DNA of 64,000 bases from Myxococcota bacterium (GTDB lineage: Bacteria > Myxococcota_A > UBA9160 > UBA4427): the NCBI GenBank assembly GCA_046583095.1, contig JAYGDB010000008.1:33164-97163 (forward strand), written 5' to 3'. Both the position numbers and the translations under genes were made by a program. The notes under the pieces were generated by a model. The model was not told the DNA's origin, made no database searches, and saw nothing but the letters and a program-made list of their open reading frames with translations. Position 1 is the stretch's first letter; each line of letters opens with the position of its first letter. Of this stretch, positions 13,719 to 31,228 are shown piece by piece.

Positions 13719-15493
13719 GGCTTCCGACTTTCCCGAAGGCGCGAGAAGCGGATCGCTCGCTCCACCTCGGCGAGATCGACTTCCAGGTTCGCGGTGATGG
13801 GACCCCCGCGCTCGATGGCACGGAGGATCGTGTCGCGTGCGGAGTCCAAGTCATCGAGAACCAGCTGCGCCTGGGCGATCAGCTGCAGCTCGTGCTGGGA
13901 CGGCGAGTCGTTGCGGGAGAGACGCTCGATCCACTCGCGCGCCCAACGCTGCTTGAGTTTCACGAAGGCCGGGTCACTCTGAATCGCCGCATAACCCGCC
14001 ATCAACAAGTGATCCAAGCGGTTGTAGCCCCGCCGGTGAGCCCGCTCGAGCAACTCGACGGCCGTGTCGGCATCGCCGGCCTGGGCGGCACGGGTTGCGT
14101 CCTGCGTCTTGGCCGCGACGCCTTCCGGGTAGTGCTTGACTGCGTCGGCCATCACGAGGGACGCTGAACGCCAGATCGTCGCCCGGTCGAAGCTTCGCGC
14201 GGCGAAGACCACGAGCAGCAGCGCAGCAGCGATCCGCAAGCCGCGCCGGAAGGCGTCCGGGTTGGCGAGCTTGCGGCTGGCAATCCACTCGTGACCGGCC
14301 AGCGCGACGCCCCCGATCAAGCCCGGCAGGATGAAATAGAGATAGCGATCGGCCAGTGGGAAGGGGAGGGGGATCACGCCGCAAACCGGGGCGAACGAGA
14401 CCAACGCAAAGATCCACCAAGCTGCCTCCGGGCGGCGGTTGCGCAGCATCGCGAAGGTGCGCCAGCCGACGGCGGCCAGAATCGGGAGCGACGCGAGCCA
14501 CCACGGATCCAGCCATCCCGCGGCGTCGGGCTCGTGAAAGGCCGAGAGGCCATAGGAGGTCGACGCCATCACGAGGTATCGCATGGCGACAGCGAGGATT
14601 CCGCGAATCCGATCGCCAAAGTCTGCGTAGAGGGTCGGCGCCTGGCCGGCCGTCTGCCCAAAGGCGAAGAATTCGGCGACCGCAAACAGCGCGAGGAGCA
14701 CCGCCCAGCCGGCCAGCCAACTCCACCTCCAGTCGATCTCGTCCTTCGAACGCGCCCAGCCCAGGGCAACCGCAAAGAAGAGCGCCACAGCGGCCGTCGG
14801 CTTCGCCATCAGGGCCAGCGCGAACAGCAGGGCTCCCCAGCCAGGGCGTCGCGGGTGCATGAGCAGTCCGGCGAGGCATAAGACCATCGCCGAGGACGTC
14901 TTCAACTGATTGATCCATGCGACGGCCTCGACGTTGCCCGGATGCACCAGGAAGAAAGCCCCACCGATCACCGCCGCCGTCGCGGAAATTCCCGTACGTC
15001 GGAAGAGCGACACGAGCAACAGCGACGCGACGACGTGCAGGAAGACATTCACGACGTGATAACCAGTGACGTTCGGCCCGAATACCTGCCATTCGAGGGC
15101 GTGCAGCAGGATGTGGACGGGTGCGTAGTTCTCGACAATCACCGCCAACACGCTCGTCGGGTCGAGGATCGCGATCACGTTCTCGGGGGTGAGATCGTGA
15201 ACGAAGACGTTCCGCTGGACGTAGTGCTCGTCATCGGAGATGAAGCTCCCACCGAGTGCGGGCCAGTAGACGAGCAGCGCGATGACCAGGAAGCCGACGA
15301 AGAGCAGCCGCGAATCGACTCCCGACGACGCAGCCGGACGCGTCTCCCCGGTCCTCCGCCTTCCCTGCGCGCTGGAACTGGAGCTGGAACGAGCCAGGGG
15401 TCGACCTACTCGGAAAAGCCGTCGGGCTTTCGCTGCAGGAAGTTCCAGGCATCCCCGATGATGTCCTCGAGAGATGTCCGGCGGGCCTCCCAC
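13715..15493 (-). CDS. TMTC/PMT-like GT-C membrane protein (DUF1736-type) with C-terminal TPR domain
   Basis: 592 aa; LLVYWPALGGSFISDDEHYVQRN..., YHVVNVFLHVVASLLL, FFLVHPGNVEAVAWINQLK match bacterial TMTC-like O-mannosyltransferase homologs; TPR tail. Only canonical start is GTG 15493, inside the galE 3' end. Confidence 0.75.
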   Translation of the reverse strand: MGGPPDISRGHHRGCLELPAAKARRLFRVGRPLARSSSSSSAQGRRRTGETRPAASSGVDSRLLFVGFLVIALLVYWPALGGSFISDDEHYVQRNVFVHDLTPENVIAILDPTSVLAVIVENYAPVHILLHALEWQVFGPNVTGYHVVNVFLHVVASLLLVSLFRRTGISATAAVIGGAFFLVHPGNVEAVAWINQLKTSSAMVLCLAGLLMHPRRPGWGALLFALALMAKPTAAVALFFAVALGWARSKDEIDWRWSWLAGWAVLLALFAVAEFFAFGQTAGQAPTLYADFGDRIRGILAVAMRYLVMASTSYGLSAFHEPDAAGWLDPWWLASLPILAAVGWRTFAMLRNRRPEAAWWIFALVSFAPVCGVIPLPFPLADRYLYFILPGLIGGVALAGHEWIASRKLANPDAFRRGLRIAAALLLVVFAARSFDRATIWRSASLVMADAVKHYPEGVAAKTQDATRAAQAGDADTAVELLERAHRRGYNRLDHLLMAGYAAIQSDPAFVKLKQRWAREWIERLSRNDSPSQHELQLIAQAQLVLDDLDSARDTILRAIERGGPITANLEVDLAEVERAIRFSRLRESRKP

Positions 15494-16404
15494 CCCAACA
15501 ATTCGCGAGCAAGAGTGCCGCCGCTCACGAGCCGGGGCGGGTCACCGCTGCGACGCCCGGTGACCACCTCGGGGATCGGGTGCCCCGTCACTCTTCGCGC
15601 CACCTCGATGACCTCGCGCACCGAGTAGCCGGCCCCCGTGCCCAGGTTGCAGGCGATCCGCGGGGTGCCGTCCTGTAGCAGCCTCAGCGCCCGGAGATGC
15701 GCATCCGCGAGGTCGTCAACGTGGATGTAGTCGCGAATGCACGTACCGTCGGGTGTGTCGTAGTCGTCGCCGTAGATCGAGATCGACTCCCGCTTGCCTA
15801 GCGCCACCTGCAGGACCAGGGGAATCAGGTGCGTCTCGGGATCGTGGTCCTCGCCAAGGCTCGAATCGAGCGCGGCGCCCGCGGCATTGAAGTAGCGCAG
15901 CGCCGCGACGCGGAACCCGTAGGCCCGCGCGTAGTCGTCCATCATGTGCTCCATGTGGAGCTTGGTACGCCCATAGGTGTTGATCGGGGCCTGCGGGTGC
16001 GAGTCCGAAATCGGGATCTCTATCGGGTCGCCGTAGGTCGCGCAGCTCGAGGAGAAGACGATTTCGACACAGCCCGCCGCGCGCATTTCCTCGAGCAGAT
16101 TGAAGGTGTAGAGGACGTTCTGCTCGTAGTACTTCGCCGGATTCTCCATGGACTCGCCGACCAGGGCCTTCGCGGCGAAATGGATCACCGAGCGCGGAGC
16201 ATGCTCGGAGAAAAGTCGGGCCAGCGCCTCACGATCCCGAAGGTTTCCCTTCACGAAGGGCACCGACACGGCCTCTCGATGCCCATCCGAGAGATCATCG
16301 AAGACCACGACCTCGATGTCTCGCTCCTGAAGGGACCGCACGCTGTGGCTGCCGATGTAGCCGGCACCTCCGACGACGACGACCGGTCCTTCCGGATGCT
16401 CCAT
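15406..16404 (-). CDS. galE: UDP-glucose 4-epimerase
   Basis: Track ORF trimmed to ATG 16404 (MEHPEGPVVVVGGAGYIGSH), preceded by GGAGG. YGRTKLHME (YxxxK); overall GalE-like sequence. Confidence 0.9.
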   Translation of the reverse strand: MEHPEGPVVVVGGAGYIGSHSVRSLQERDIEVVVFDDLSDGHREAVSVPFVKGNLRDREALARLFSEHAPRSVIHFAAKALVGESMENPAKYYEQNVLYTFNLLEEMRAAGCVEIVFSSSCATYGDPIEIPISDSHPQAPINTYGRTKLHMEHMMDDYARAYGFRVAALRYFNAAGAALDSSLGEDHDPETHLIPLVLQVALGKRESISIYGDDYDTPDGTCIRDYIHVDDLADAHLRALRLLQDGTPRIACNLGTGAGYSVREVIEVARRVTGHPIPEVVTGRRSGDPPRLVSGGTLARELLGWEARRTSLEDIIGDAWNFLQRKPDGFSE

Positions 16405-16462
16405 CTCTCTGCCTCCAACGTTCGGGTCCGGAGCATACAGAAGTCGACTCGCGGGGAGACCG

Positions 16463-16729
16463 TTGTACCCTGAGTCGATGCAAACCGAGCCGCTCGAACT
16501 CTCGGTGGTGACGCCCTGTCTCGACGAGGCGGACACCCTGGGCATCGGCTTGATCGGCATCGCCGCTCGAAAGTGGCAGCTCGAGGGCTTCGGCCCCCTC
16601 GATTACGCGCAGACGATGCGCTGGGTGATCCCGGGCGTCACGCTCGCGGCCGTCGGCTTCCAGACCCTTCTCTCGGGTTGGTTCGTCAGCATCCTGGGGA
16701 TGAACCGCGTGGAGATGAAGAGCAGGTGA
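16463..16729 (+). pseudogene. GT2 glycosyltransferase remnant with in-frame loss of the catalytic domain
   Basis: 83-88 aa (ATG 16478 or TTG 16463). The N-terminus LELSVVTPCLDEADTLG is the first strand/helix of a GT-A fold. It joins directly to a C-terminal TM tail GFGPLDYAQTMRWVIPGVTLAAVGFQTLLSGWFVSILGM. Confidence 0.55.
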
Positions 16730-17334
16730 AGCTGGCGGAACGCCTGCACGAAGCCTCCGGCGGCGCGCGACGTCTCGAGGCCCTGAGCGAGCACGTGGGA
16801 GCGCTGCTGCCGGAGGGCGCGAAGGTGCTCGACGTCGGCTGCGGCGACGGCATGCTCGACGAGCGGATCCAGCAGCGCCATTCGCATCTCGAGATCACCG
16901 GGATCGACGTTCTCGTGCGGCCGGAGGCGCGTATCCCGGTGAGGTTGTTCGACGGACGCACGATCCCGCATGCGGAAGACAGCTTCGACGCGGTGCTCCT
17001 GATCGACGTCCTCCATCACTGTGACGATCCGGAGGCGATGCTCGCCGAGGCGATCCGCGTCGCACGCCGCTGCATCGTCCTCAAGGATCACATCCTGAGC
17101 GGTCCGCTCTCGGGTGCGCTTCTCCGCATCATGGATGACATCGGCAACCGCCGCTTCGGCGTGGCCCTGCCGCACAAGTACTGGAGCGAGGCGCGTTGGC
17201 AGCAGACATTCGAGCGGCTGGGTCTTCCTGTCGAGGCCTGGATCACGGATCTCGGTCTCTACCCCGGCCCCCTGGATTGGATCTTCGGGCGGTCACTGCA
17301 CTTCGTGACGCGCCTCGGGATCTCATCTGAATGA
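16726..17334 (+). CDS. Class I SAM-dependent methyltransferase
   Basis: Track ORF trimmed to GTG 16726 (GTGA overlap with the remnant stop). VLDVGCGDGMLDE motif I, DAVLLIDVLHHCDDP. Confidence 0.8.
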   Translation: MKLAERLHEASGGARRLEALSEHVGALLPEGAKVLDVGCGDGMLDERIQQRHSHLEITGIDVLVRPEARIPVRLFDGRTIPHAEDSFDAVLLIDVLHHCDDPEAMLAEAIRVARRCIVLKDHILSGPLSGALLRIMDDIGNRRFGVALPHKYWSEARWQQTFERLGLPVEAWITDLGLYPGPLDWIFGRSLHFVTRLGISSE

Positions 17335-18968
17335 TCCGCTCCCCCACGGCGCGGGTCTTCGCAGGCTGGCTGCTGCTCTCGGCCATCGTGCTCGGCATCG
17401 AAGCGCCGCCGGCTGGCGAGCCGGGCCTCTACTACGACGAGGCGTTCCTCGCCCAGCAAGGTCGGGATTTTCTCGAGCCTGATCGCCTCACCCGGCACCC
17501 GCCTGGCACATCGTCAACCTACGTCCTGGGCCGGCGTTTTCCCCTGAGCAACTCCAGCTATCTCGGCTCGCTCAAGAGCCAGCTTCTGATTCCGCCCCTC
17601 GCACTCTTCGGGGCGAGCGTCACGACCCTCCGGATAGCGACGCTATCTACCGCCCTGATCGCCCTGCTGTTCACGCTGCTCTGGGCGCGCCGGATCTTCG
17701 GGACCCCGCAGGCCCTGGCAACCGGAGCCCTGGTGGCCCTCGATCCCAGCTTCGTCTTTTTCGGGGCGTGCGAGTGGGGTCCGTACACGACGATGCTCCT
17801 GTGCCGGAGCATCGGCCTATACAGCTTGACGGTTGGCTGGCAGAGGCGACGAACGGGACTTCTCGTGTTGGGCGGACTCGCGCTTGGCCTCGGGGTCTAC
17901 GCCCGGGCCGACTTCGTGATCATCGGGATCGCCTCGGCTGTCGGACTCGTCGCAGCGCGCGGCCGGCACCTCCTGCGCGAGGTTCGGGAGCGTCCCCTGC
18001 CGATCGCGGCGGCGCTCACGGCAGTCGTGGTGGGCGCGATCCCAATGCTGATCGGGGCGCAGGACCTGCTGGCCACCCAGGCGGGCATCGCCGATCGGGG
18101 CGATCTCGTCTATCGGCTTCAGGTCTTGTGGAGCACTCTCGACGGCTCCCACTTCCATCGTGTCATGCACACCGGCGGGATCTTCGAGCGTATCTTCGAC
18201 GCCCCGGGCCCGGCCAGCCTCTTCGGGCTCGCGACCGCCGCAGCCGTGGGCGTCGCAGCGGGCACGCTGTTGCGGCAGTCCGAGCCGCGCATCACGTTCC
18301 TGCTCGTCACCGTCGTCGTGCTCGGGGTGGCGATGGTCCTGCTACCGGGCGCCGTTCGAGCGCATCATATGTTGAACTTGCTGCCGTTCACGCACCTCCT
18401 GGTCGCCGCAGTCGGGACTCACCTAGCCGGCACGCGGGGCGCTCGGATCGCGGCCAGTGTCGCGCTCGTCCTCGTGCTCGCGAGCGAAGCCCGCGTAACG
18501 TGGCAGACCCGAGAGGAGATCGCCGAGACTGGCGGTCGCGGGCGCTGGTCGAACTCACTCGACGCATTCGCCGCCGAGATCGGGACCGATCCGGACGCAG
18601 TCGCGGTCTCCCTCGACTGGGGGTTTCACGAGCCGCTGCTGTTCCTGACGACGAAGCAGAGCTTGATCGAGCCCATCTGGACGATTCCACAGCTCCTCCG
18701 ATTGGGCCGCAGCTGGATTCACCCGGGCGACGCGAACCACCGCTACCTCGTCCGCGAAGTTCCGTACGATCTCTTCCGACTCGGCCCGAAGCTCCTGGCC
18801 ACGGCCCGCGAGCTCGGGCCGGACCTCGCCGAGATCCGGACCCACACCGACCGACGGGGAGACGTCGCGTTCTATAGCGTTCGCTTCACCGCGCCTCACC
18901 AACTCGTCTTTTCGGGCGAGTTCGAGGTCCGCTTTCAGGGAGAAAGACAACCGAGGAGGCCTCGATGA
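17331..18968 (+). CDS. GT39/ArnT-like (PMT_2-type) GT-C membrane protein
   Basis: 545 aa, polytopic; first loop GEPGLYYDEAFLAQQG; ATGA overlap with the methyltransferase. Confidence 0.7.
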   Translation: MIRSPTARVFAGWLLLSAIVLGIEAPPAGEPGLYYDEAFLAQQGRDFLEPDRLTRHPPGTSSTYVLGRRFPLSNSSYLGSLKSQLLIPPLALFGASVTTLRIATLSTALIALLFTLLWARRIFGTPQALATGALVALDPSFVFFGACEWGPYTTMLLCRSIGLYSLTVGWQRRRTGLLVLGGLALGLGVYARADFVIIGIASAVGLVAARGRHLLREVRERPLPIAAALTAVVVGAIPMLIGAQDLLATQAGIADRGDLVYRLQVLWSTLDGSHFHRVMHTGGIFERIFDAPGPASLFGLATAAAVGVAAGTLLRQSEPRITFLLVTVVVLGVAMVLLPGAVRAHHMLNLLPFTHLLVAAVGTHLAGTRGARIAASVALVLVLASEARVTWQTREEIAETGGRGRWSNSLDAFAAEIGTDPDAVAVSLDWGFHEPLLFLTTKQSLIEPIWTIPQLLRLGRSWIHPGDANHRYLVREVPYDLFRLGPKLLATARELGPDLAEIRTHTDRRGDVAFYSVRFTAPHQLVFSGEFEVRFQGERQPRRPR

Positions 18969-19699
18969 TCGAGAAGATTTGCAACGTCCGGACCGCCGAC
19001 GGCGAAATGGAGACCTTCACGGCGCGCCCCGCCGGCGATGGCCCGTTTCCGGCGGTCGTGCTCTACATGGACGCTCCGGGAATCCGGGGGGAGCTCTACG
19101 ATTTCGGACGCCGGATCGCCGGAGAGGGCTACTACGCCCTGGTTCCGGACCTCTACTACCGGCGCGGCCGTGTACGGCTCGATATGACCCTCCGAGGGGC
19201 CCGAAAAGTGATGTACGGCCACATGGAGAGCCTCTCGAATGCCCGCGTAGCGGCCGATACCGAGGCGCTATTCGAGCTTCTGGCGGACGAGCCCAGCGCC
19301 GCCTCGGGCCCGAAGGGTTGCATCGGCCACTGCATGAGCGGGCAGTTCATCGCCACGGTTGCAGGCACCTTCCCGGACCACTTTCGCGCATCGGTCTCGT
19401 GCTACGGCGTACGCATCGTGACCGACGAACCCGACAGTCCCCACAACCTGCTTGCTCAAGCGCAGGGAGAAATCTTCTTCGCCTTCGCGGAGCGGGACGA
19501 TCACGTGCCGGACGCCGCGATCCAGGTACTGCGCGATACCCTCGAAGAGGCCTCGGTCGAGAGTGTGGTGGAAGTCTATCCGAACACCGAGCACGGCTTC
19601 TGCTTCCCGGAGCGGAAACAGGTCTATGCCCCGGCCGCGGCCGAAGACGTGTGGAAGCGCAGCTTCGAGATGTTCCAGAGACAGCTGCGTCGGAGCTAG
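18965..19699 (+). CDS. Dienelactone hydrolase family protein
   Basis: 244 aa; DGPFPAVVLYMDAPGIRGEL, GCIGHCMSGQF nucleophile elbow, NTEHGF; ATGA overlap with the upstream gene. Confidence 0.85.
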   Translation: MIEKICNVRTADGEMETFTARPAGDGPFPAVVLYMDAPGIRGELYDFGRRIAGEGYYALVPDLYYRRGRVRLDMTLRGARKVMYGHMESLSNARVAADTEALFELLADEPSAASGPKGCIGHCMSGQFIATVAGTFPDHFRASVSCYGVRIVTDEPDSPHNLLAQAQGEIFFAFAERDDHVPDAAIQVLRDTLEEASVESVVEVYPNTEHGFCFPERKQVYAPAAAEDVWKRSFEMFQRQLRRS

Positions 19700-19724
19700 C
19701 TGCCGAAGCTGGCGCTTCACCCGA

Positions 19725-21920
19725 CTAGGAGTCGGATAGAACCACCACCCGTCCTTCCTGCACGTCCGCCTCGCTCACCGCGACGGCGTGTACCTCATCG
19801 CCGATCCGCACGCGATACGGCCCTTCCGAGGCCACTGCCTCTTCGTGGAGGGGTGGCCCAGTCGCGTACGGGACTCGCAGCCGGGCCACGCCGTCCGCGC
19901 CCGCGGTCGCATTCGACTCGTAGTCGATCCGACGACCCGAGGGCGAAGCCAGGCGAAGCGTGACGATCACGACTTCACCTTCCGTCGCCCGGACCTCGAG
20001 CATCGCACCTTCGACTCTCTCGAAGAGCTTGTAGGGCAGCGTCGCTGACCCCGTCACGCGCTGGCCCGACAACTGGAAGGAGCGGGCGAAGTGCACGCCA
20101 CGCTCCGGCCCCTCCGCGACGAGTCGGAAGTTCTCGCTTGCGGGGAAGCGCACCACTGCGGTGCCGTCCGCATGGTGCAGCCAACCCTCGACGGTATCCG
20201 GATCGGCGCTCGAGAAGGTGATCACGTACCGCGCCTTCAGCTGTCTTGCGAGGGCGACGGCCCTGGATTCGGAGGAAGCCCCCAGGAGTTGGAACGCCGC
20301 GTTCCAGTTTTCCAAACCGATGAAGGCCCAGAACGGATCCGTCGGCGTCGGGCGGCGAGCGACGTTCTGGATCGCATGTCCCAGGTTCGCGTGTGCGACC
20401 ACGCCGTACTCGGGGGCCTGTCGGATGTCGAAAGAGCCTGACGTCTCGGGCGTAACCCTCCGCACTCGCTGCATGAAACGTGTGAGGCTCCCAGCGACAG
20501 TGAGGAGCGCCCGGTCGCGGCCCGCGAGTTCGCCCCGCCACACACGCAGGGCGCTGCCCAACCGCGGTGCCATCTGCAGTGCGATCGGAGGCGCGAGCAG
20601 GACGAGCCCGATCCCCACGCAGGCCGAGACGACTGCGAGTCGGGAGCCACCGGCCCAAGCCGCGAGACGCCGTCCCACTGCGGCAATCACGATCGCGAAG
20701 CCCACCGCCGCCGCGGGACCGAGATCGTTTCCGTACCGGCGCTGCACGAGGGCGAGCGCACCGAACCAGAAGCACCAGGCTGCAACCACCCAACCGATCG
20801 CACGCGTTTCCTTCGGGCATGCCCACAGGACCGCGAAGGGCAGTACCGGAATCAGGTATCCGAACAACCCCCAGACCTGCCAGACCGGCCGACCCGTCGC
20901 GCGCCCGAAGATGGCGAAGAGCGGAAGCTGCTCCCCGGTTCGCAACCCGACTCCGTCGCTCATGGTGAGGAAGCGCAGCGCCGGCTCGAGGCCCTCGCGA
21001 ATCGCGGGAAGCAGCAGCGCGAGACCGACCGCGGCCAGGCCGAAGCCGGCCGTCCAACCGAGACGCACGAGCGGAGGGCGTTGGCGGCCGCTCCCTTCAA
21101 GCCACCACATCCCGGCCGAGACGATCGCGACGAGAAGTACGGCCAGCACATGGAGTCGGGAGAGCGCGATCGCCGACCAGGCGCCGCCGAGCGGCTCGGG
21201 GAAGAACCAGACGAGCGGCGCCAATACGACCCCGGTCGCGAAGGCGCTCGTCGCCTGCACCCGGTAGAGATCCCGACGACCCGTGCACGCCGCCGCCAGC
21301 CAAAGGATGCCCTCGACGAGTGCGAGATAGAGAAGGCTACCGTGCCAGGTGAGGAGCATCGCGAGGCGGCCCGCAGACAGACCGACACCCAATCGCGCCG
21401 GAACTCCCTCGCTCGAAACCAGGCGTGCAACGACCCACAGCAAACACGCGCCGATGAAAGCCACTGCGCAGTGATGGTCGAGTTGTCCGACACGGCTGTA
21501 GTTGACGTGGATCGGCAGTAGCGCGAGGAATGCAGCGGCACCCACGCCCACGCCGGGACCCCCGATGCGGCACCCGAGCGCATACACGGGCAACAGGGTT
21601 GCGGCGCCGATGAACGCAGGCACCCAGGCCGCGAACACCTCGAAGCCGTGCGGGTCAGCAGCCAGGACCCGCCCGAGGGCGGCAACCGTGAAGTCGAAGA
21701 GCGGAGGCCAGGAGATCGCCGCCCCTCCCGGGTAGTTGATATACGGGTCCGAGAAGAGAATCGTTGGAAAATTCACCCAGGCGTAGAGAGCCCGGCGAAC
21801 GTGGTACTGGGCGTCTCCCGGCGCGAAGACCACCGTCTCGCCATCGATGAAGACCCACTCGAAGCCGAGGGCCCGCAGGCCGAGGGCCAGCAGGAGGGCC
21901 GCTCCCAGCCAGGTCTTCAA
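19725..21920 (-). CDS. AglB/STT3-family oligosaccharyltransferase homolog with divergent WWDYG motif
   Basis: 731 aa, TTG start in a TTGA overlap. GDAQYHVRR, SDPYINYPGGAAISWPPLFD, VGQLDHHCAV and RTGEQLPL align with AglB EL1, DxH and EL5 motifs as I recall them. The WWDYGHWI position reads AHANLGHAI; KARYVITF follows. Confidence 0.75.
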   Translation of the reverse strand: MKTWLGAALLLALGLRALGFEWVFIDGETVVFAPGDAQYHVRRALYAWVNFPTILFSDPYINYPGGAAISWPPLFDFTVAALGRVLAADPHGFEVFAAWVPAFIGAATLLPVYALGCRIGGPGVGVGAAAFLALLPIHVNYSRVGQLDHHCAVAFIGACLLWVVARLVSSEGVPARLGVGLSAGRLAMLLTWHGSLLYLALVEGILWLAAACTGRRDLYRVQATSAFATGVVLAPLVWFFPEPLGGAWSAIALSRLHVLAVLLVAIVSAGMWWLEGSGRQRPPLVRLGWTAGFGLAAVGLALLLPAIREGLEPALRFLTMSDGVGLRTGEQLPLFAIFGRATGRPVWQVWGLFGYLIPVLPFAVLWACPKETRAIGWVVAAWCFWFGALALVQRRYGNDLGPAAAVGFAIVIAAVGRRLAAWAGGSRLAVVSACVGIGLVLLAPPIALQMAPRLGSALRVWRGELAGRDRALLTVAGSLTRFMQRVRRVTPETSGSFDIRQAPEYGVVAHANLGHAIQNVARRPTPTDPFWAFIGLENWNAAFQLLGASSESRAVALARQLKARYVITFSSADPDTVEGWLHHADGTAVVRFPASENFRLVAEGPERGVHFARSFQLSGQRVTGSATLPYKLFERVEGAMLEVRATEGEVVIVTLRLASPSGRRIDYESNATAGADGVARLRVPYATGPPLHEEAVASEGPYRVRIGDEVHAVAVSEADVQEGRVVVLSDS

Positions 21921-23014
21921 GCGCCCTCGAGCAACGACGCCAAGACCGATACGACGTGCTCCTGCTGGTCCGGACGGATCCCCGGATAGATCGGAAGCGA
22001 GAGCAATTCGCCGGCCGCGCGCTCGGCCACGGGGAAGTCGCCGAGACTGTGGCCCAGGTGCTGGAAAGCCCCCTGCAAGTGGATGGGCCGCGGATAGTGG
22101 ATCCCGGCTCCGATTCCCGCTCCGTTCAGTCCAACCAGCAGCCGATCGCGCTCGGGAACGCGAATCGTATACAGGTGCCAGACGTGGGCGTTGCCCTCGA
22201 GGGTCTGGGGCAGGACGACATCGGGAACGCCGCTGAGCAACTCGTCATAACGGCGCGCCGCTTCCGCGCGATGTTCGTTCCAGGCGTCGAGCTTTCGCAG
22301 CTTGGCTCGCAGCACGACCGCCTGCAGGGTATCGAGCCGCGAGTTGAAACCCTGTTCGGGGTGATGGTACTTCTTCTCGCTTCCGTACTGGCCCAGGCTG
22401 CGAACTCGCGCGGCCAGGTCCGGGTCGTCGGTGACGACCGCACCGGCGTCACCGTAGGCGCCGAGGTTCTTGCCGGGAAAGAAGCTCGTCCCGGCCACCA
22501 CCCCGAATGAACCCGAGAGCCGACCCTTCCGGCGCGCGCCCTGGGACTGCGCGGCGTCCTCGATGAGCGGCACGCTTGCGTCGGCAAGGGCCTCGAAAGC
22601 GGCGACCTGGCCGAAGAGGTTGACGGGCATGATCGCGCGGGTCTTGGGACCGACCCGACTCAAGGCCGAGGCGCTGTCGAGAAGGTGCGTGGCCGGATCC
22701 GAGTCGACGAGCACCGGCGTCGCACCCGTGCGCGCAATGGCGAGCGCCGAGGCGATGAAGGTGTTCGCAGGAACCACCACCTCGTCGCCGGGCCCGATGT
22801 CGAGTGCGCGACAGGCCAGCTCGAGAGCATCCGTTCCGTTCCCGACGCCGATGCAATGACCGACTCCGGACGCCACCGCGAACTCCTCCTCGAAGGCGCG
22901 CACGTCCGGCCCTTGGATGAAGGCGGTGCTCTCGATCACCCGTTCGAGGCCGGCCTTCACCTCGGCGGCGATTTCTCGATGCTGCCAGGCGAGATCGACG
23001 AGCGGAATCTCCAT
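21917..23014 (-). CDS. DegT/DnrJ/EryC1/StrS-family PLP-dependent nucleotide-sugar aminotransferase
   Basis: 365 aa; MEIPLVDLAWQHREIAAEVKAGLERVIESTAFIQGPDVRAFEEEFA...GNGTDALELA...VPANTFIASA; family-typical sequence. Confidence 0.9.
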   Translation of the reverse strand: MEIPLVDLAWQHREIAAEVKAGLERVIESTAFIQGPDVRAFEEEFAVASGVGHCIGVGNGTDALELACRALDIGPGDEVVVPANTFIASALAIARTGATPVLVDSDPATHLLDSASALSRVGPKTRAIMPVNLFGQVAAFEALADASVPLIEDAAQSQGARRKGRLSGSFGVVAGTSFFPGKNLGAYGDAGAVVTDDPDLAARVRSLGQYGSEKKYHHPEQGFNSRLDTLQAVVLRAKLRKLDAWNEHRAEAARRYDELLSGVPDVVLPQTLEGNAHVWHLYTIRVPERDRLLVGLNGAGIGAGIHYPRPIHLQGAFQHLGHSLGDFPVAERAAGELLSLPIYPGIRPDQQEHVVSVLASLLEGA

Positions 23015-24048
23015 CAGCGCCGGTCTCCCCCCACGCGCACCTCACGTCCCCCCTCGGCGATCGATCGGCTGATGGCATCCAGGGTGCGGACGACGGCAAG
23101 CCCTTCACGTCCGTCGGTGATCGGCACGCCGCCGCTCTCGATGCAGTCGAGGAAGTGATCGCATTCGTTGCGCAGGGGCTGGCTTGCGGGGACCTTCGGA
23201 ACGCTGATGTCGCCATCGCGCACGACCATCCGGAACGTCGCGAAGGAGTCGACGAGCGCGGGATGGCTGCGCTCCTCGGACACCTGCTTGTCGTAGATTC
23301 GCAGGGGCTCGGTCAGGCTGATGTCATCGAAGGTGAGCATCCGCTTCTCACCGACCACGGTGATGTCCCGGGTCTTGCGCGGGTGCAGCCAGGACGCGTG
23401 GAGGTGAACGAGCACGTCATTCGGATACTGGAGGGTCGCAAAGACCGCGTCCTCGACGCCGGGATTGATCCAGGCCGTCCCCCTCGCCGAGACGCTCTCG
23501 GGCTGCGCGTCGAGCCAGTAGCTCGCGAGGGCGATGTCGTGGGATGCCAGATCCCACGCGGCGTTCACGTCCACTCGGATCGGCCCGAGGTTCGTGCGCG
23601 TCATCGAGATGTAGTAGATGCGTCCGAGGTCACCGTCGACCAGATAGCGCTTGGCCTGCTGGGAGGCCGCGTTGAAGACGAAGACGTGGCCGACCATCAG
23701 GATGCGGGCACTGCGCTCCGCGATCTCACACAGAGCCTCGGCGTCGCGAACGCTGTCGGCCATCGGCTTCTCGACCAGCACGTGTCTACCAGCCTCGAGC
23801 GCCTGCCGGGCCAAATCGAAGTGGGTGCTCGTGGGGGTCGCGATCACGACGGCATCAACGGAAGCATCGCCGAATGCGTGGGTGGCATCGTCGCTCACGC
23901 GGATGTCGGGAAAGCGGAGCCCGACGGCCTGCCGGCGGCTGGCATCGCGATCGATCACCCAGGCCACCTCGCTGCGCTGGCGGTCGTGGAAATTCGCGAT
24001 GAGGTTCGGGCCCCAGTGTCCGGCACCGATCACAGCGACGCGGATCAT
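23014..24048 (-). CDS. Gfo/Idh/MocA-family NAD-dependent oxidoreductase (WbpB/GnnA-like nucleotide-sugar dehydrogenase)
   Basis: Track ORF trimmed to ATG 24048 (MIRVAVIGAGHWGPNLIANF) with a GAGAGGA-like RBS. Rossmann N-terminus, EKPMA motif. Confidence 0.85.
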   Translation of the reverse strand: MIRVAVIGAGHWGPNLIANFHDRQRSEVAWVIDRDASRRQAVGLRFPDIRVSDDATHAFGDASVDAVVIATPTSTHFDLARQALEAGRHVLVEKPMADSVRDAEALCEIAERSARILMVGHVFVFNAASQQAKRYLVDGDLGRIYYISMTRTNLGPIRVDVNAAWDLASHDIALASYWLDAQPESVSARGTAWINPGVEDAVFATLQYPNDVLVHLHASWLHPRKTRDITVVGEKRMLTFDDISLTEPLRIYDKQVSEERSHPALVDSFATFRMVVRDGDISVPKVPASQPLRNECDHFLDCIESGGVPITDGREGLAVVRTLDAISRSIAEGGREVRVGGDRR

Positions 24049-24071
24049 GGGTTCCTCTCGATCGGTCGGGC

Positions 24072-24794
24072 TCACTTCTTGAGACGAAGTCCGACGAGCA
24101 GGACCGGCTTCAGGATCGACCACCATCCGACGATCGGCTTCATCTTGGTCTGCCCGATGCGCTTCGGAGGGTAGACCTTCGAAACCGGCTCTTCCAGCGT
24201 GCGATGGCCGAGCTGGATGGCCCGGATGTAGAGGTACGGCTCGAGCGCGTACTCGTCGAGCCACGCTTGATCGAGGTCGAGGCGTTCGTCTTCGAGCACC
24301 CGGCGGTGGACCGCCCGGAAGCCGTTGGTGGACTCCGTCACGCGCCGGCCCGTCACCAGCGAGAAGAGGAGGGGATGGATGCGCGTCGCGATCTTGCGGT
24401 AAAAGGGCATCTCGCCGAAGTCAGCACCCGGCTCGAGAAAGCGCGAGCCCTGAACGAAGTCCGCGCGCCCCTCCGCGATTGGATCCAGGAGGCGCGGGAT
24501 TTCCTCCGGCGAATCCTTGTTGTTCCCCGCCATCACGACCGCGACGTCGTAGCCGCCGCGAAGTGCCTCGGCATAACCGACCCGAAGTGCGGCACCGACC
24601 CCCGCGACGCGTCCCATCGAGATCACCCGTGCACCGCCTTCCCGCGCGACCTCGGCCGATCGGTCCGTCGACCCGTCGTCGATGACGAGCAGGTCGTCGA
24701 CGACGTCTCGAGGAGTACGACGCACGACCTCGCCGATCTTCACCTCCTCGTCGAGAACGGGAGCCATCGCGATCACCCGTAGGCCGCGGTACAC
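24072..24794 (-). CDS. GT2 glycosyltransferase, polyprenol-phosphate sugar synthase type
   Basis: 240 aa, GTG start 3 nt after the upstream stop. VIAMAPVLDEEVKIGEVV, LLVIDDGSTDRS, VVMAGNNKDSPEE, FVQGSRF. Confidence 0.85.
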   Translation of the reverse strand: MYRGLRVIAMAPVLDEEVKIGEVVRRTPRDVVDDLLVIDDGSTDRSAEVAREGGARVISMGRVAGVGAALRVGYAEALRGGYDVAVVMAGNNKDSPEEIPRLLDPIAEGRADFVQGSRFLEPGADFGEMPFYRKIATRIHPLLFSLVTGRRVTESTNGFRAVHRRVLEDERLDLDQAWLDEYALEPYLYIRAIQLGHRTLEEPVSKVYPPKRIGQTKMKPIVGWWSILKPVLLVGLRLKK

Positions 24795-24797
24795 CGT

Positions 24798-26165
24798 CTA
24801 GTCCTCCACCGGCGCCGGCGGCAGATAGCCGAGGGCGCGGAGTCGCTCGACGTCTTCGTCGCTCATCGCATGGGCGGGTACGGGGGTGACCGCCGAGGCC
24901 AGATAGCCGTGGATTTCCGGCGGCAACGGACTTGCAGCGGACTTGCGCCAGCCGCCTTCCACTCGCTCGAAGCGCTGCGGGTGGAGTGGCCGGCCTTGGC
25001 CCAACGGACCCTTACCCAGGATCTTGACGGTCAGGTAGCCCCTCGAATCGTAGGCGCTCAGCTCGTGACCGACGTCGCTCAAGACAACGCGATCGGGCAG
25101 CGGCGCTTCTCCGCGAAGAGCGGGGACGAGCGAGATCCCGCTGGCTGCTTCGAGTTTCGCGAGGCCCGCGAGCTCGAGCAGGGTCGGGGCGATGTCGACG
25201 TGGCTCGTAACACCTTCGATCCGGCGCGGAGCGATGCCGGGCGCTACGACGATGAGCGGCACCAACGCCTGCTCGGGCGTCGTCGTGTGACCGTGCTGGA
25301 AGAAGAAGCCGTTCTCGTCGAGGCTCTCTCCGTGGTCTGCGGTGAGTGCGATCACGGCGTCGTCTCCATCCACCGCCGCCAGGAGCTCGCCCACCCAGTG
25401 ATCCGTGAAGGCGATCTCTCCGGCATACAGGGCCGCGTACCGCGGTGCCCGCCGAATACCGACGAGGGCCTGGTAGCTGGGGATGCCGCCGCGTCCCCGG
25501 TTCACCGGCAGTACGGAAAGCACCCGATCCGTCCGGAGTGGAACCTCATCGACGACGTCCGCCCAGGCGCCGGGCGGGGTGTAGGGACCGTGGGGATCCT
25601 GCAGATGCACCCACAAAAAGAAGGGCCGATCCCGGGGCTGTGCGAGCCAGGCGAGGGCACGCCCCGCGGTGTCGTCCGCAGTTCGTTCGAAGTACTCGCC
25701 GCGATTCGCCTCGCTGGAGGGCAGCAGATCGTCGTAGACGTCGAAGCCTTGATCGAGCCCGGTACGGGTCTTGAGAACGACATTGCTCACGAACGCGGCG
25801 GTGTCGTAGCCCGCCGACCGGAGCGACTCCGCCAACGTCGTTACGCCCGTGAGCCGCGTCGCACCGTTCTCGGAACCCACTGAGTGCTCGCGGACGTAGC
25901 GCGAGGTCATGATCGAGGCGTGGGCGGGAACCGTCGCCGTCGAAGCCGCGATGGCAGTCTCGAAGAGGACGCCCCGGGCCGCCAGAGCGTCCATGTTGGG
26001 AGTGATCTCCCTCGAGAAGCCGTAGCTGTGCACGAAGTCGGCCCGGAGGGTGTCTATCGTGATCAGCAGAACGTCGGGATGCGAGCCAGAGCGTGGACTG
26101 CAGCCCAGCTGAAGGATCGCGGCCAGGAGACCCACGACAGTGATGCAACGGACAGACGACGACAT
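24798..26165 (-). CDS. Sulfatase-fold lipoprotein with Thr-type active-site motif
   Basis: Track ORF trimmed to ATG 26165: MSSSVRCITVVGLLAAILQLGCSP (lipobox LQLGC). DVLLITIDTLRADF, ASTATVPAHASIMTSRY at the CxPxR position, LTADHGESLDENG. Confidence 0.8.
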   Translation of the reverse strand: MSSSVRCITVVGLLAAILQLGCSPRSGSHPDVLLITIDTLRADFVHSYGFSREITPNMDALAARGVLFETAIAASTATVPAHASIMTSRYVREHSVGSENGATRLTGVTTLAESLRSAGYDTAAFVSNVVLKTRTGLDQGFDVYDDLLPSSEANRGEYFERTADDTAGRALAWLAQPRDRPFFLWVHLQDPHGPYTPPGAWADVVDEVPLRTDRVLSVLPVNRGRGGIPSYQALVGIRRAPRYAALYAGEIAFTDHWVGELLAAVDGDDAVIALTADHGESLDENGFFFQHGHTTTPEQALVPLIVVAPGIAPRRIEGVTSHVDIAPTLLELAGLAKLEAASGISLVPALRGEAPLPDRVVLSDVGHELSAYDSRGYLTVKILGKGPLGQGRPLHPQRFERVEGGWRKSAASPLPPEIHGYLASAVTPVPAHAMSDEDVERLRALGYLPPAPVED

Positions 26166-26262
26166 CGACGGCGGGCAGCATACCGCGTCCGGCACGCAGC
26201 TTGCGCGCAACCGGCGAGCCACTTCGCTCGCGGAGCCTTCGGGCTTCGGCGATACTCCTCCC

Positions 26263-27288
26263 GTGACCGAACCCGCGGCAGCAACCGGAGCTTGCGTGCT
26301 CTGCGGAGAACCCGGCACGCCCCTCCATACCCAGTTGAGCGATCGCCTCTTCGACGCGACCGGCACGTGGTCGCTGCTCTCGTGCACCGGCTGCTCACTC
26401 GTATGGCTCGACCCCCGGCCCGAAAACCCCCTCGAACTCTACGACCGCTATTACACCCACGGCCGTGAAGGAGATCCCGAAACCAGCTCGCTGCTTCGGC
26501 GTGCCGTGAATCGCGGCATCCCAGCGGCGCGGATGGGCTATCCGGCGGCGCCGGGTGCGCCTCCCCTCGAGCGATGGCTCGGACAGCTGCTCTCCTGGAT
26601 CGGCCCCCTGCGCGAGATCGCCGAGCACGGCGTGATGTGGCTACCCGTTTCGCGGCGCGGACGGCTGCTCGACGTCGGCTGCGGCTCGGGTCTCTTCCTC
26701 GAACGGATGCGCGACTTCGGCTGGCAGGTCGCGGGCGTCGAGCCGGACGCCCCCGCCGCCAGTGCCGCCGTGCAGCGGTTGGGTGACGACGCCCTCGTCG
26801 TGGCCCACCTCGACGATCCGGCGCTCGCATCGGAATCCTTCGACGCCGTCAGTATGTCCCACGTAATCGAGCACGTGCCCGACCCGATCGGCACACTGAG
26901 CAAGTGCCGCGAGCTGCTGGCACCCGCAGGTACCCTGGTCTGCGTCACCCCGAACACGCGAAGCCTCGGCGTCCGATCCTTTGGCGCGAACTGGCTCCAC
27001 TGGGATCCGCCCCGCCATCTGAACGTCTTCGACCCCGCTTCCCTCGAGCGGACGATCCGGGAAGCCGGATTCGAGGTCGAGCGCGTGGCGACCCCCGGCA
27101 GCACCGCGCACTTCGTCTGGCAGGCCAGCAGCCTGATCGAGCGCCACGGCCGGCTCCCCGACATCGATCTCTCGGGAGTCTCGCCGGCGCTGCTGCTCGA
27201 GAGCATCGGCTTCTGGGCACTCGAGTACCTGCTCACCCGAATCGGTCGCCGCTGCGGTGAGGAGGTCCTCGTGGTGGCGAAGCGGTGA
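26263..27288 (+). CDS. Class I SAM-dependent methyltransferase with N-terminal Cys4 zinc-ribbon
   Basis: CVLCGEPG...CTGCSLVWLDPRP, LLDVGCGSGLFLE, FDAVSMSHVIEHVPDP. Start uncertain: GTG 26263 proposed. The track start 26140/26143 would overlap the divergent lipoprotein signal peptide. Confidence 0.75.
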   Translation: MTEPAAATGACVLCGEPGTPLHTQLSDRLFDATGTWSLLSCTGCSLVWLDPRPENPLELYDRYYTHGREGDPETSSLLRRAVNRGIPAARMGYPAAPGAPPLERWLGQLLSWIGPLREIAEHGVMWLPVSRRGRLLDVGCGSGLFLERMRDFGWQVAGVEPDAPAASAAVQRLGDDALVVAHLDDPALASESFDAVSMSHVIEHVPDPIGTLSKCRELLAPAGTLVCVTPNTRSLGVRSFGANWLHWDPPRHLNVFDPASLERTIREAGFEVERVATPGSTAHFVWQASSLIERHGRLPDIDLSGVSPALLLESIGFWALEYLLTRIGRRCGEEVLVVAKR

Positions 27289-28250
27289 GTTCCGCCCGGG
27301 TCTCGGTCGCGATGGCGACCTGCGACGGCGAGCGGTTCGTCCTCGAGCAGCTCGAGAGCATTGCGAGCCAGAGTCGCCTGCCTGACGAGTTGATCGTCTG
27401 CGACGACGCTTCTCGGGACGATACCTTCGCGCAACTCGAAGCCTTCGCGTCACGCGCCCCCTTCGAGGTTGTCGCCACATGCAATCCAGACCGACTCGGG
27501 ATCACCGCAAATTTCGAGCGCGCCATCTCGGCCTGCAGCGGGGACATCATCTTCCTCGCCGATCAGGACGACGTCTGGCTTCCGGAGAAGATCGCGACCC
27601 TCGCGCCGCTTCTCATAGAGCACCCCGACACGGGAGCCGTGTTCAGCGACGGCGAGATCGTCGATGCAGACGGCCACTCACTCGGCGACTCGCTCTGGCG
27701 TTCTCTCGGCTTCACCCGACGCGAGCAGGAGGCGGTCCGTGGGGGGCGGACCGTCGATGTCTTCCTGCGTCACGTCGTGGCCGCGGGAACGACGATGGCG
27801 TTCCGGTCGAGCCTGCGAGACCTGGCGCTGCCGTTTCCGACGCTTCGGAGTTGCCACGACGCCTTCGTCGCTTTCATCGCGGCCGCGACCTCCCGGGTGG
27901 AGATTGTCCCCGAGCGACTGATCCGGTATCGCCTGCACGGCGCAAACCAGATCGGAATTCGCAACCTCGACGTCTTCGGGCAACTCGCGAAAGCGCGCGA
28001 GCAGATCGAGACGGGAGCCTTTCCATACGCGGTCGAGTTCTTCCAGGCGGCGCGCGACCGGCTCGCGTTGGCGCCGCCCCCGACGCTCATGCAGATCGAC
28101 CAGAAGATCCTCCACGCGAGCCGCCGGGCCAGCATGTCCTCGCGCCTGGGCGGGCGCCTGGGAGCGATCCGACAGGAGATTCAGAGCCGGCGCTACTGGC
28201 GCTACTCGTACGGCTGGAAGAGCGTCGCCCAGGATCTCCTGCTGCGGTGA
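27285..28250 (+). CDS. GT2 glycosyltransferase
   Basis: 321 aa, GTGA overlap with the methyltransferase. VSVAMATCDGERFVLEQLESI, LIVCDDASRDDT, FLADQDDVW. Confidence 0.85.
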   Translation: MSSARVSVAMATCDGERFVLEQLESIASQSRLPDELIVCDDASRDDTFAQLEAFASRAPFEVVATCNPDRLGITANFERAISACSGDIIFLADQDDVWLPEKIATLAPLLIEHPDTGAVFSDGEIVDADGHSLGDSLWRSLGFTRREQEAVRGGRTVDVFLRHVVAAGTTMAFRSSLRDLALPFPTLRSCHDAFVAFIAAATSRVEIVPERLIRYRLHGANQIGIRNLDVFGQLAKAREQIETGAFPYAVEFFQAARDRLALAPPPTLMQIDQKILHASRRASMSSRLGGRLGAIRQEIQSRRYWRYSYGWKSVAQDLLLR

Positions 28251-30260: not shown

Positions 30261-31226
30261 ATGATCGCCGTCGTCATTCCCTGCTACCGGGTGAAGAGCC
30301 GGATCCTCGACGTCGTGTCCGGGATCGGCCCCGAGTGCCAGGCCATCTACGTGGTCGACGACGGCTGCCCGGAGGGCAGCGGCGACCACGTCGAGGCCGA
30401 ATGCCGGGACCCTCGGGTCCACGTCCTGCGGCACGAGAGAAACCAGGGAGTCGGTGCCGCCACCCTCACTGGCTACCAGGCCGCGCTCGACGGGGGCGCT
30501 GCGGTGATCGTCAAGCTCGACGGCGACGGGCAGATGGATCCCACATGGATCCCGCGCCTGGTGCGGCCCATCCAGGACGGCGAAGCCGACTACGTGAAGG
30601 GAAACCGCTTCTTCGACCTGGGCGATCTCGGTGCAATGCCGCGCGCGCGCGTGCTCGGCAATTCGCTCCTCTCGTTCGCCAGCAAGCTCTCGAGCGGATA
30701 CTGGAACGTCTTCGATCCGACGAACGGCTTCACAGCCATCCACGCCGCGGTGGCCCGCCGGCTTCCCCTTGCAAAGCTCTCGAAGGGCTACTTCTTCGAA
30801 TCGGACCTGCTCTTCCGCCTCGGCATCCTCCGCGCCGTGGTCTGCGAGGTTCCGATGCCCGCCGTCTACCAGGATGAGCCCAGCAGCCTGGTGATCCGAC
30901 GGGTGATCTTCCAGTTCGCAGGTAGGCACTTCGTCAACACCTTCAAGCGGATCTTCTACAGCTATTACCTGCGCAACTTCAACATCGCCTCGATCGAGAT
31001 CCTGGCCGGCCTGGCCTTCCTCGCTTTCGGTGTGTGGTTCGGCACTTCCGAGTGGATCGACGGCATCCGAGCGAACGTTCCCGCCACCAGTGGCACCGTG
31101 ATGGTCGCAGCCCTGCCCGTGATCGTCGGAGTTCAGCTCATCCTCGCGTTCCTGAGCTACGACCTGCAGAACGTGCCCCGCGAGATCCTGCATCGGCGTC
31201 TGGAGCCCGCGCCGTCGAAGGTTTGA
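30261..31226 (+). CDS. GT2 glycosyltransferase with C-terminal TM helices (GtrB/ArnC/DPM1-like polyprenol-phosphate glycosyltransferase)
   Basis: 321 aa; MIAVVIPCYRV, IYVVDDGCPEGSG, NQGVGAATLTGY, KLDGDGQMDP, DYVKGNRF; two C-terminal TM segments; GAGGA RBS. Confidence 0.85.
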   Translation: MIAVVIPCYRVKSRILDVVSGIGPECQAIYVVDDGCPEGSGDHVEAECRDPRVHVLRHERNQGVGAATLTGYQAALDGGAAVIVKLDGDGQMDPTWIPRLVRPIQDGEADYVKGNRFFDLGDLGAMPRARVLGNSLLSFASKLSSGYWNVFDPTNGFTAIHAAVARRLPLAKLSKGYFFESDLLFRLGILRAVVCEVPMPAVYQDEPSSLVIRRVIFQFAGRHFVNTFKRIFYSYYLRNFNIASIEILAGLAFLAFGVWFGTSEWIDGIRANVPATSGTVMVAALPVIVGVQLILAFLSYDLQNVPREILHRRLEPAPSKV

Positions 31227-31228
31227 CG

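Follow-up and report, generated by a model that had tools for sequence, protein, structure and literature searches.

An AglB-type STT3 homolog without the sequon motif closes a putative amino-sugar operon in Myxococcota

In several described systems a glycosyltransferase of family 2 (GT2) loads a nucleotide-activated amino sugar onto a polyprenyl phosphate, and a membrane glycosyltransferase of the GT-C type then transfers it. This holds for the Arn system (ArnB, ArnC, ArnT), for the mycobacterial galactosamine pathway of PpgS (Rv3631) and Rv3779 (PMC3485146), and for the euryarchaeal dolichol-monophosphate (Dol-P) route known from Haloferax, Methanococcus and Archaeoglobus. The euryarchaeal AglB enzymes take monophosphate-type donors begun by GT2s of the AglJ/AglK type (PMC8342417, PMC8993221), and archaeal N-glycans often contain 2,3-diacetamido sugars (PMC8993221). 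The WWDYG motif is treated as a universal signature of oligosaccharyltransferases (OSTs) throughout the three domains of life, and in solved OST structures it builds, together with the DK/MI motif, the pocket for the +2 Ser/Thr of the acceptor (PMC8342417). Here we describe a five-gene operon at positions 19725-26165 of a 64,000-nucleotide stretch of DNA ("the window") from a Myxococcota bacterium (assembly GCA_046583095.1, contig JAYGDB010000008.1, positions 33,164 to 97,163). It codes for a sulfatase-fold lipoprotein, a GT2, a Gfo/Idh/MocA oxidoreductase, a DegT-family aminotransferase and an AglB/STT3-like GT-C protein that has lost WWDYG. We regard it as a variant of lipid-linked glycosylation in the periplasm that had not been described before.

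By analogy, the euryarchaeal route appears to be the best fit among these three. The preliminary description of the locus had taken Arn as the closest logic, but closer to it is the Dol-P pathway, in which a GT2 of the AglJ/AglK type begins a glycan on the monophosphate carrier and AglB passes it on (PMC8342417, PMC8993221). The locus shares with it a DPM1-like GT2, an AglB-L-type GT-C with the AglB_L1 peripheral domain and, as in archaeal N-glycan synthesis, a 3-dehydrogenase, an aminotransferase and, in some relatives, an acetyltransferase of the kinds that make 2,3-diamino or 2,3-diacetamido sugars. It differs in its Myxococcota host, with a carrier that is presumably of the undecaprenyl type, in the loss of WWDYG and, it seems, of DK, in a GT2 without DXD, in family matches that stay below the equivalog cut-offs and in the sulfatase-fold lipoprotein at the head of the operon. 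With Arn the locus has in common a GT-C that would act on the outer face of the membrane, and ArnC is among the top structural matches of the GT2. However, membership in the Arn system fails on the aminotransferase type (C3, not C4), on the features of the GT2 and on the GT-C family, which here has the GT66/STT3 fold, while the ArnT-family enzyme is a separate neighbour. Equivalents of ArnA, ArnD and ArnE/F (formyltransferase/decarboxylase, deformylase, small flippase) were not found among the annotated open reading frames (ORFs) of the window.

The remaining relatives each cover a part of the system. Like the operon as proposed below, the PpgS/Rv3779 pathway uses a short GT2 of about 240 residues without transmembrane (TM) helices to make a polyprenyl-phosphate-linked amino sugar that a GT-C passes to an envelope glycan; unlike it, that pathway has a GT-C of another family, handles GalNAc/GalN and belongs to actinobacterial hosts. 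The C-mannosyltransferase DPY19 is an STT3-like GT-C (TM-score 0.52 to our AglB homolog) that likewise lacks WWDYG; it takes a monosaccharide from a polyprenyl monophosphate and recognises a non-sequon peptide motif, and so provides a precedent for an OST fold with another acceptor. Yet DPY19 is a eukaryotic enzyme of remote structural kinship, and it attaches its sugar to Trp by a C-glycosidic bond. Finally, WbpB/WbpE/WbpD, GnnA/GnnB and the archaeal UDP-GlcNAc 3-dehydrogenase pathway employ the same two or three enzyme families in the same order, but there is no UDP-GlcNAc 6-dehydrogenase near the operon, and the acetyltransferase is missing in this lineage.

The five families were confirmed with both Pfam and NCBIfam. 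Gene 1 (24798..26165; this and the following four are on the minus strand) is the sulfatase-fold lipoprotein (Pfam Sulfatase, E-value 3e-48; Phosphodiest, 2.3e-11) and is followed after a 3-nt gap by the 240-residue GT2 (24072..24794; Glycos_transf_2, 2.9e-10). A 23-nt gap with a GAGAGGA ribosome-binding site then leads to the oxidoreductase (23014..24048; GFO_IDH_MocA, 4e-29), whose gene overlaps by 1 nt with that of the pyridoxal-phosphate-dependent aminotransferase (21917..23014; DegT, 1e-103). The latter shares 4 nt (TTGA) with the gene for the 731-residue AglB homolog (19725..21920; AglB_L1, 4.5e-17; TIGR04154 archaeo_STT3, 6e-71), which starts at TTG and has GAGGG upstream. All five ORFs show the codon-position GC pattern of real genes, in a window of 64-70% GC. 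A promoter scan gave no sigma-70-like promoter within the five-gene block, and terminator-like hits in it did not exceed the shuffled expectation. The five genes are almost certainly co-transcribed. Thus the layout given in the preliminary description, with its strand, gaps, overlaps and family order, is borne out by the ORF calls, the junction sequences and the domain matches. At the downstream end, a dienelactone-hydrolase gene and the AglB homolog converge with their stop codons 25 nt apart (19699..19725), and between these stops lies a short inverted repeat, CCGAC-TAGGA-GTCGG, without a T-run terminator.

The host is bacterial, because the window encodes Ddl, GlmS, GlmU, FabH, UvrD, HflX and MutS2. 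An origin of the contig from an archaeon is ruled out by the same genes (Ddl, GlmU, FabH, UvrD, HflX, MutS2) and by relatives that include complete Myxococcota chromosomes.

Gene 5 codes for a genuine STT3 homolog of the AglB-L type. As judged from alignment and model, its catalytic centre is intact, and its activity is predicted from these features. A profile built from 29 family members matches Archaeoglobus fulgidus AglB-L (AfAglB; 3WAJ) at 1.3e-50 and STT3A at 2e-3, with no match to PglB. The AlphaFold2 (AF2) model has a predicted local distance difference test score (pLDDT) of 91.6, and in Foldseek its TM-score normalised to the query (TMq) reaches 0.80-0.81 to AfAglB-L (7E9S, 3WAK), in comparison to 0.56-0.60 for STT3, 0.52 for DPY19, 0.46-0.50 for PglB and 0.31-0.36 for ArnT. 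According to the model, the Foldseek matches and the AglB_L1 domain, the protein has the GT-C fold of GT66 enzymes with about 13 TM helices and a C-terminal globular domain. The AglB_L1 match scores 62 bits vs a cut-off of 23.6, whereas the curated cut-offs of TIGR04154 (240 bits vs 450) and Pfam STT3 (16.4 vs 24.5) are missed. In a hidden Markov model alignment, D36 within D-x-x-Y-H-x-R-R corresponds to AfAglB D47 in the metal motif of external loop 1 (EL1), and D148-H149-H150 correspond to D161-H-H163 in the metal motif of EL2; neither motif varies among 29 aligned sequences, and both are almost unchanged across 238. E330 (T-G-E-Q) corresponds to the Glu of the TIXE motif (T-I-A-E in AfAglB) in EL5, where the Glu is invariant and the Thr and Ile positions are variable, and the invariant R395 corresponds to R426, the Arg near the donor phosphate. 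The earlier assignment of this gene to the AglB/STT3 type is therefore upheld by the fold (TM-score 0.80), by the catalytic residues and by the profile match to AfAglB-L.

The most unusual feature of the family, absent from the preliminary description, is the loss of WWD. The position of WWDYG reads H-A-N-L-G in the window protein. WWD occurs in 0 of 238 family members, 150 of which represent 50%-identity clusters; at this site the family reads (A/S)H(A/P)N(L/F)G or other, with conservation limited to the Gly and, in most cases, the His after it. In addition, the DK motif appears to have Ser/Thr in place of its Lys (E-T-G-K in AfAglB vs D-P-D-T), in a region where the profile alignment is weak. 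Membership among functional OSTs (GT66) hence fails on WWDYG: by sequence, the family seems to have kept OST chemistry while losing the part that reads the sequon. What, then, does the AglB homolog glycosylate? Because the Ser/Thr pocket formed by WWD and DK seems to be lost, the acceptor is probably something other than the classical N-X-S/T sequon, and we see a roughly even split between a protein and a non-protein acceptor. The clade is sizeable, with hundreds of 50%-identity clusters that are abundant in marine and sediment metagenomes; a library search gave 1732 hits at E<=1e-30, a count that includes true AglBs.

Conservation of the operon was followed by tblastn of the window proteins against 56 related loci (L numbers below) on contigs chosen as one genome per species. 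The preliminary description had proposed to look for the five-gene order in other genomes and had made its case depend on co-conservation. The full order of sulfatase-fold protein, GT2, oxidoreductase, aminotransferase and AglB-like protein is kept in 17 of the 56 loci, and the core from GT2 to AglB homolog is found in order in 19, with intergenic gaps that stay small. Across these loci the identity of the AglB homolog falls to 42-45%, while that of the GT2 is still 72-89%. Since the order persists in 17 loci and the core in 19 despite an AglB identity of 42-45%, the arrangement is not due to chance, and the co-conservation on which that case depended is borne out. The AglB homologs come almost exclusively from metagenome-assembled genomes (MAGs) of uncultured Myxococcota (Deltaproteobacteria).

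The AglB family also extends beyond this gene set. In a lineage of lower GC content (59%; L005 4000..19400), the homolog lies near a class I lysyl-tRNA synthetase, a 2-oxoacid:ferredoxin oxidoreductase and a pyrroloquinoline-quinone dehydrogenase, with no glycan genes within 10 kb of it. An obligatory linkage between the AglB homolog and the sugar genes was rejected on the basis of such loci with housekeeping neighbours. Other paralogs are linked instead to tetratricopeptide-repeat (TPR) proteins and a fusion of a major facilitator superfamily (MFS) protein with spermidine synthase; these proteins accompany AglB-like paralogs even where sugar genes are lacking (L019, L025, L028, L029, L035, L039). 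Divergent tandem pairs of AglB-like paralogs occur in L030 (7630..12187) and L032 (7623..12175). Single genomes can carry two or three AglB-like copies, with a maximum of three in the MAG OFTM73 (L003, L031, L050), all without WWD.

The two genes in the middle of the operon are expected to make the sugar. Among enzymes of known structure, the aminotransferase matches the C3 enzymes QdtB (6e-101, 341 bits), DesV (2OGA; 1.6e-92, 314 bits) and WbpE (4e-78, 266 bits) far better than the ArnB structures (1e-42 to 4e-44, 145-155 bits). By sequence it groups with C3 sugar aminotransferases, and it does not qualify as an ArnB-type C4 enzyme. The top NCBIfam match of the oxidoreductase is the archaeal UDP-GlcNAc 3-dehydrogenase NF040723 (3.5e-49, 168 bits vs a cut-off of 450), and its matches in the PDB are 3C1A, 7BVJ (6e-21), which we take to be GnnA although this identity could not be confirmed, and WlbA (3Q2K; 1.6e-15). 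We presume that it is a UDP-GlcNAc 3-dehydrogenase. These affinities agree with the initial proposal that the two enzymes form a 3-amino-sugar pair: a 3-dehydrogenase and a C3 aminotransferase are encoded together, with best matches in the right families, although below the equivalog cut-offs, and with an acetyltransferase in 11 relatives only. As no UDP-sugar 6-dehydrogenase lies near the operon, the substrate is probably UDP-GlcNAc and not a uronic acid, and the most likely product, judged by homology, would be UDP-2-acetamido-3-amino-2,3-dideoxyglucose (UDP-GlcNAc3N). GlmS, GlmU and GalE, all encoded in the window, could supply the UDP-HexNAc.

Whether the 3-amine stays free seems to depend on the lineage. 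In 11 syntenic relatives a 191-residue hexapeptide-repeat acetyltransferase of the left-handed β-helix (LbH) type is encoded between the aminotransferase and the AglB homolog (L003 9311..9886, and at the same position in L009, L011, L013, L015, L017, L018, L020, L022, L038 and L043). The gene is missing from the window and from L001, L002, L004, L010, L014, L016, L024, L027 and L049, and a search of the 64-kb window for a WbpD-type acetyltransferase gave GlmU as the only LbH protein, at 26% identity. When the AglB homologs are arranged in a neighbour-joining tree, all loci with the acetyltransferase belong to one crown clade, and the clade of the window and other deep branches are without it. 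Accordingly, the statement that the operon has no N-acyltransferase is correct for this operon and for the window and does not extend to the 11 relatives. The free cationic amine suggested along with it is possible in this lineage, where the acetyltransferase might be unlinked to the 64 kb covered here; it is not a property of the whole system, because the 11 relatives carry the LbH N-acetyltransferase.

The GT2 is presumed, from its sequence and model, to be a polyprenyl-phosphate amino-sugar synthase. Its best NCBIfam matches are AglJ (5e-23), the haloarchaeal Dol-P hexose transferase (4e-22) and, third, PpgS (2e-17; 63 bits vs a cut-off of 370), with ArnC also among the best, and all of them lie below their cut-offs. 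Sequence matches in the PDB are the dolichol-phosphate mannose synthase (DPMS) of Pyrococcus (5MLZ; 3.5e-11) and ArnC (5e-8). The AF2 model (pLDDT 88) gives TMq values of 0.74 to ArnC, 0.75 to DPMS and 0.72 to GtrB. A homolog search returned near-identical metagenomic sequences only, with the automatic label 'dolichol-phosphate mannosyltransferase'. The description of this enzyme as an ArnC/GtrB-type GT2 therefore holds in so far as DPMS, ArnC, GtrB, AglJ and PpgS are its nearest relatives in sequence and fold, but it lacks both the DXD motif and the two C-terminal TM helices that mark an ArnC-type enzyme. Where DPMS and ArnC have D-A-D, the operon GT2 has A-G-N in 20 of 20 orthologs, embedded in the invariant VVMAGNNKD(S/A)PEEI (residues 86-99), and other GT2 paralogs in the window retain DXD. 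No TM helix is predicted; a hydrophobic or amphipathic helix lies near the C-terminus (residues 220-235). The very high conservation of the protein, 72-89% identical in genomes whose AglB homologs share only 42-70%, argues that it is functional.

The lipoprotein at the head of the operon has a signal peptide ending in Cys, with the pattern [LFA][GA]C kept in all orthologs, in agreement with its original designation as a lipoprotein. Around residues 76-88, T-V-P-A-H aligns with C-A-P-A-R of choline sulfatase, so that Thr takes the place of the formylglycine Cys and His that of the Arg. Activity as a sulfatase is ruled out by this replacement of the C/S-x-P-x-R formylglycine motif with T-x-P-x-H. 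The longer motif T-x-P-x-H-x-S-I-M-T is invariant in the orthologs, and T-x-P-x-H resembles the Thr-nucleophile motif of nucleotide pyrophosphatase/phosphodiesterases (NPP), and the protein likely hydrolyses or transfers a phosphoester in the periplasm. In most relatives the gene is present twice, in tandem. A further sulfatase-family gene lies at 2036..3496 of the window.

The operon is situated inside a glycosylation island of about 40 kb, which holds at least four more GT2 genes, an MprF-type flippase-like gene, two methyltransferases, GalE, large TPR proteins, a fused MFS/spermidine-synthase protein and several GT-C-like membrane proteins (two PMT_2, one YfhO-like, one DUF6077 and one unannotated with 592 residues). 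In about 23 loci the AglB homolog is followed directly downstream by a convergent PMT_2 GT-C of the ArnT/PMT family, which in the window has about nine TM segments (17331..18968, plus strand; Pfam PMT_2, 1.6e-10). The preliminary description had let the operon end in an AglB-type enzyme instead of ArnT, but given this co-conserved ArnT-family protein next door, the contrast is misleading. The same operon as PMT_2 includes a class I S-adenosylmethionine-dependent methyltransferase (16573..17334, plus; Methyltransf_11/23; syntenic in about 17 loci), whose true start probably lies after 16729. Upstream of it, tblastn with the L003, L010 and L016 proteins and translation revealed an 88-residue in-frame relic of a DPMS-like GT2 (16463..16729, plus), which keeps the first ~22 and the last ~58 of about 390 residues and has lost the catalytic domain and three TM helices. 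In L003, L010 and L016 the intact gene, with DXD and four C-terminal TM helices, heads an operon of GT2, methyltransferase and PMT_2. Since the PMT_2 operon of the relatives thus has its own DPMS-like GT2, there are two GT2/GT-C pairs, and by operon the DXD-less GT2 pairs with the AglB homolog, as had been proposed at the outset. With only a relic in the window, the PMT_2 enzyme here has to be supplied by another synthase. The presence of a second, PMT-like GT-C that has a Dol-P-sugar synthase to itself is reminiscent of the AglS/AglD pair.

On the other side of the operon lies a divergent GT2 with an intact DXD (DQD; 27285..28250, plus; Glycos_transf_2, 1.2e-18), which is syntenic in about 14 loci and might be the enzyme that extends the lipid-linked sugar; a methyltransferase gene (26140..27288) precedes it. 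Farther along, a second GT2 that resembles AglJ and PpgS and has TM helices at its C-terminus (30261..31226, plus; AglJ, 1.4e-16; PpgS, 3.6e-15), an MprF-type flippase-like membrane protein (plus strand, ending at 32230; LPG_synthase_TM, 1.7e-33) and another GT2 together span 30261..33132 on the plus strand and may be a synthase-flippase unit for a second lipid-linked sugar. GalE (15406..16560, minus; TIGR01179, 413 bits vs a cut-off of 262) is linked to the AglB homolog in many loci. The 592-residue GT-C-like membrane protein (13715..15493, minus) has a FISDDEHY motif in its first loop and a TPR-like C-terminal tail; it has no match in Pfam or NCBIfam, resembles TMTC/PMT-type GT-Cs and keeps its synteny to the AglB homolog in over 20 loci. 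At 5641..13718 follow two TPR proteins (926 and 744 residues) and the 1014-residue MFS/spermidine-synthase fusion.

We hypothesize that the operon is a module of this envelope-glycosylation island and works in four steps, a reading to which we give an even chance. The Gfo/Idh/MocA enzyme would oxidise UDP-GlcNAc at C3 and the DegT enzyme would transaminate the product to UDP-GlcNAc3N, as their homologies suggest; in about half of the syntenic relatives the LbH acetyltransferase would then yield a 2,3-diacetamido sugar, a gene that is missing in this lineage. On the inner membrane face, the short DPM1/AglJ-like GT2 would load the sugar onto a polyprenyl monophosphate, with the caveat that this acceptor is a presumption and that the fold score of GpgS is close. 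Because DXD is replaced by AGN-NK, the GT2 might act without a divalent metal, and one could speculate that the Lys of NNK takes the place of the metal. The lipid-linked sugar would be flipped either unmodified or once the divergent GT2(s) had extended it, and the AglB-L-derived GT-C, which keeps D36, D148, H150, R395 and E330, is predicted to transfer it at the periplasmic face to a different peptide determinant or to a non-protein molecule. The Thr-nucleophile lipoprotein, whose role is the least defined, probably carries out a periplasmic phosphoester step on the product or the carrier.

In favour of this proposal are the translational coupling of the operon genes, the synteny in 17-19 species-level genomes, the affinities of the two sugar enzymes and of the GT2, the separate GT2 of the PMT_2 operon in relatives, the AglB-L fold with its retained residues, the missing WWD and the monophosphate donors of euryarchaeal AglB; several observations weigh against it. 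All genomes are uncultured MAGs and every step rests on computation; every equivalog-level NCBIfam cut-off is missed. The GT2 has neither DXD nor TM helices, which makes its donor, metal use and acceptor uncertain, and in Foldseek the soluble GpgS nearly equals the top fold matches. In some lineages the AglB homolog also occurs without sugar genes, beside housekeeping genes, so that its coupling to them is not obligatory. Lastly, the neighbouring co-conserved ArnT-family GT-C could be the true user of the lipid-linked amino sugar.

This last point can be developed into a reading of its own, in which the amino-sugar module feeds the PMT_2 enzyme, as in Haloferax AglD/AglS, and the AglB homolog transfers another glycan, pre-assembled by the surrounding GT2s. 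No other gene is linked to the AglB homolog as constantly as PMT_2, polyprenyl-phosphate-linked monosaccharides are usually used by PMT/ArnT-type enzymes, the PMT_2 operon of the window has lost its own DPMS-like GT2, and several more GT2s and a flippase-like gene lie nearby. We nevertheless consider it unlikely, given that the PMT_2 operon of the relatives has a DXD-containing DPMS-like GT2 with four TM helices of its own and that the operon GT2 is translationally chained to the AglB homolog. A similarly doubtful alternative is an Arn-like decoration of lipid A or the lipopolysaccharide core, in which the AglB homolog would move GlcNAc3N with a free cationic 3-amine from polyprenyl phosphate to a lipid A phosphate or the core and alter the surface charge. 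The host is Gram-negative, the succession of GT2 and GT-C fits, the acetyltransferase is missing from the operon and the window as well as from several deep branches of the tree, and a lost Ser/Thr pocket is compatible with a non-protein acceptor. To our knowledge, however, all enzymes that transfer amino sugars to lipid A (ArnT and those for GalN/GlcN) are of the GT83/PMT type, and an enzyme of that class is the next-door gene; moreover, the amine is acetylated in 11 relatives, the Glu of EL5 that activates the acceptor, a residue typical of amide glycosylation, never varies, and there are no linked lipid A genes.

Ordinary N-linked protein glycosylation of the Pgl/Agl type at N-X-S/T sequons would agree with the STT3-family fold, with the intact catalytic residues and with the label 'asparagine N-glycosylation enzyme Stt3' that relatives carry at the Joint Genome Institute (JGI). 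It is improbable in view of the replacement of WWDYG in 238 of 238 members and of the DK Lys that aligns with Ser/Thr, the very motifs that form the Ser/Thr pocket in solved OST structures (PMC8342417). Least of all do we expect that the oxidoreductase and the aminotransferase are equivalents of GnnA/GnnB for the GlcN3N lipid A backbone, adjacent to the glycosyltransferases by position only. The two enzyme families are the same, but the pair lies between GT2 and GT-C with overlaps of 1 and 4 nt and is syntenic in 19 loci, and the N-acetyltransferase that follows in 11 loci would block acylation of lipid A at N3.

Returning to the lipid-linked amino-sugar module, a bolder form of it is that the AglB-like proteins are a new functional class of STT3 enzymes. 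An archaeal-derived GT-C would have been refashioned by losing the Ser/Thr pocket, and it would move a 3-amino sugar carried on polyprenyl monophosphate to an acceptor outside the sequon, with the donor made by a metal-independent, DXD-less GT2 of DPM1-like type. We put this forward tentatively, as less probable than not. In that case this lineage would use GlcNAc3N, which is cationic, and others the diacetamido sugar, and the acceptor would be a new peptide determinant or an outer-membrane lipid or glycan.

In the literature on AglB/STT3 homologs in Myxococcota and myxobacteria, on WWDYG-less homologs and on bacterial GT66, we found no paper that describes this family; a few bacterial sequences were noted within the euryarchaeal AglB clade (Lombard 2016). 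Most likely the GT-C was acquired from a euryarchaeal source, and the family appears to document a second, AglB-type transfer of such an enzyme from archaea to bacteria, along with the archaeal-style logic of a monophosphate carrier. The strongly conserved GT2 without DXD is an enzymological puzzle of its own. A bacterial clade that has the catalytic centre but no WWD is a natural experiment on how the STT3 fold builds acceptor specificity. If the AglB-like proteins do form a new class, the window protein and its relatives would be the first bacterial STT3-family enzymes with a specificity other than N-X-S/T, and the system may reveal a new kind of envelope glycoconjugate in Myxococcota.

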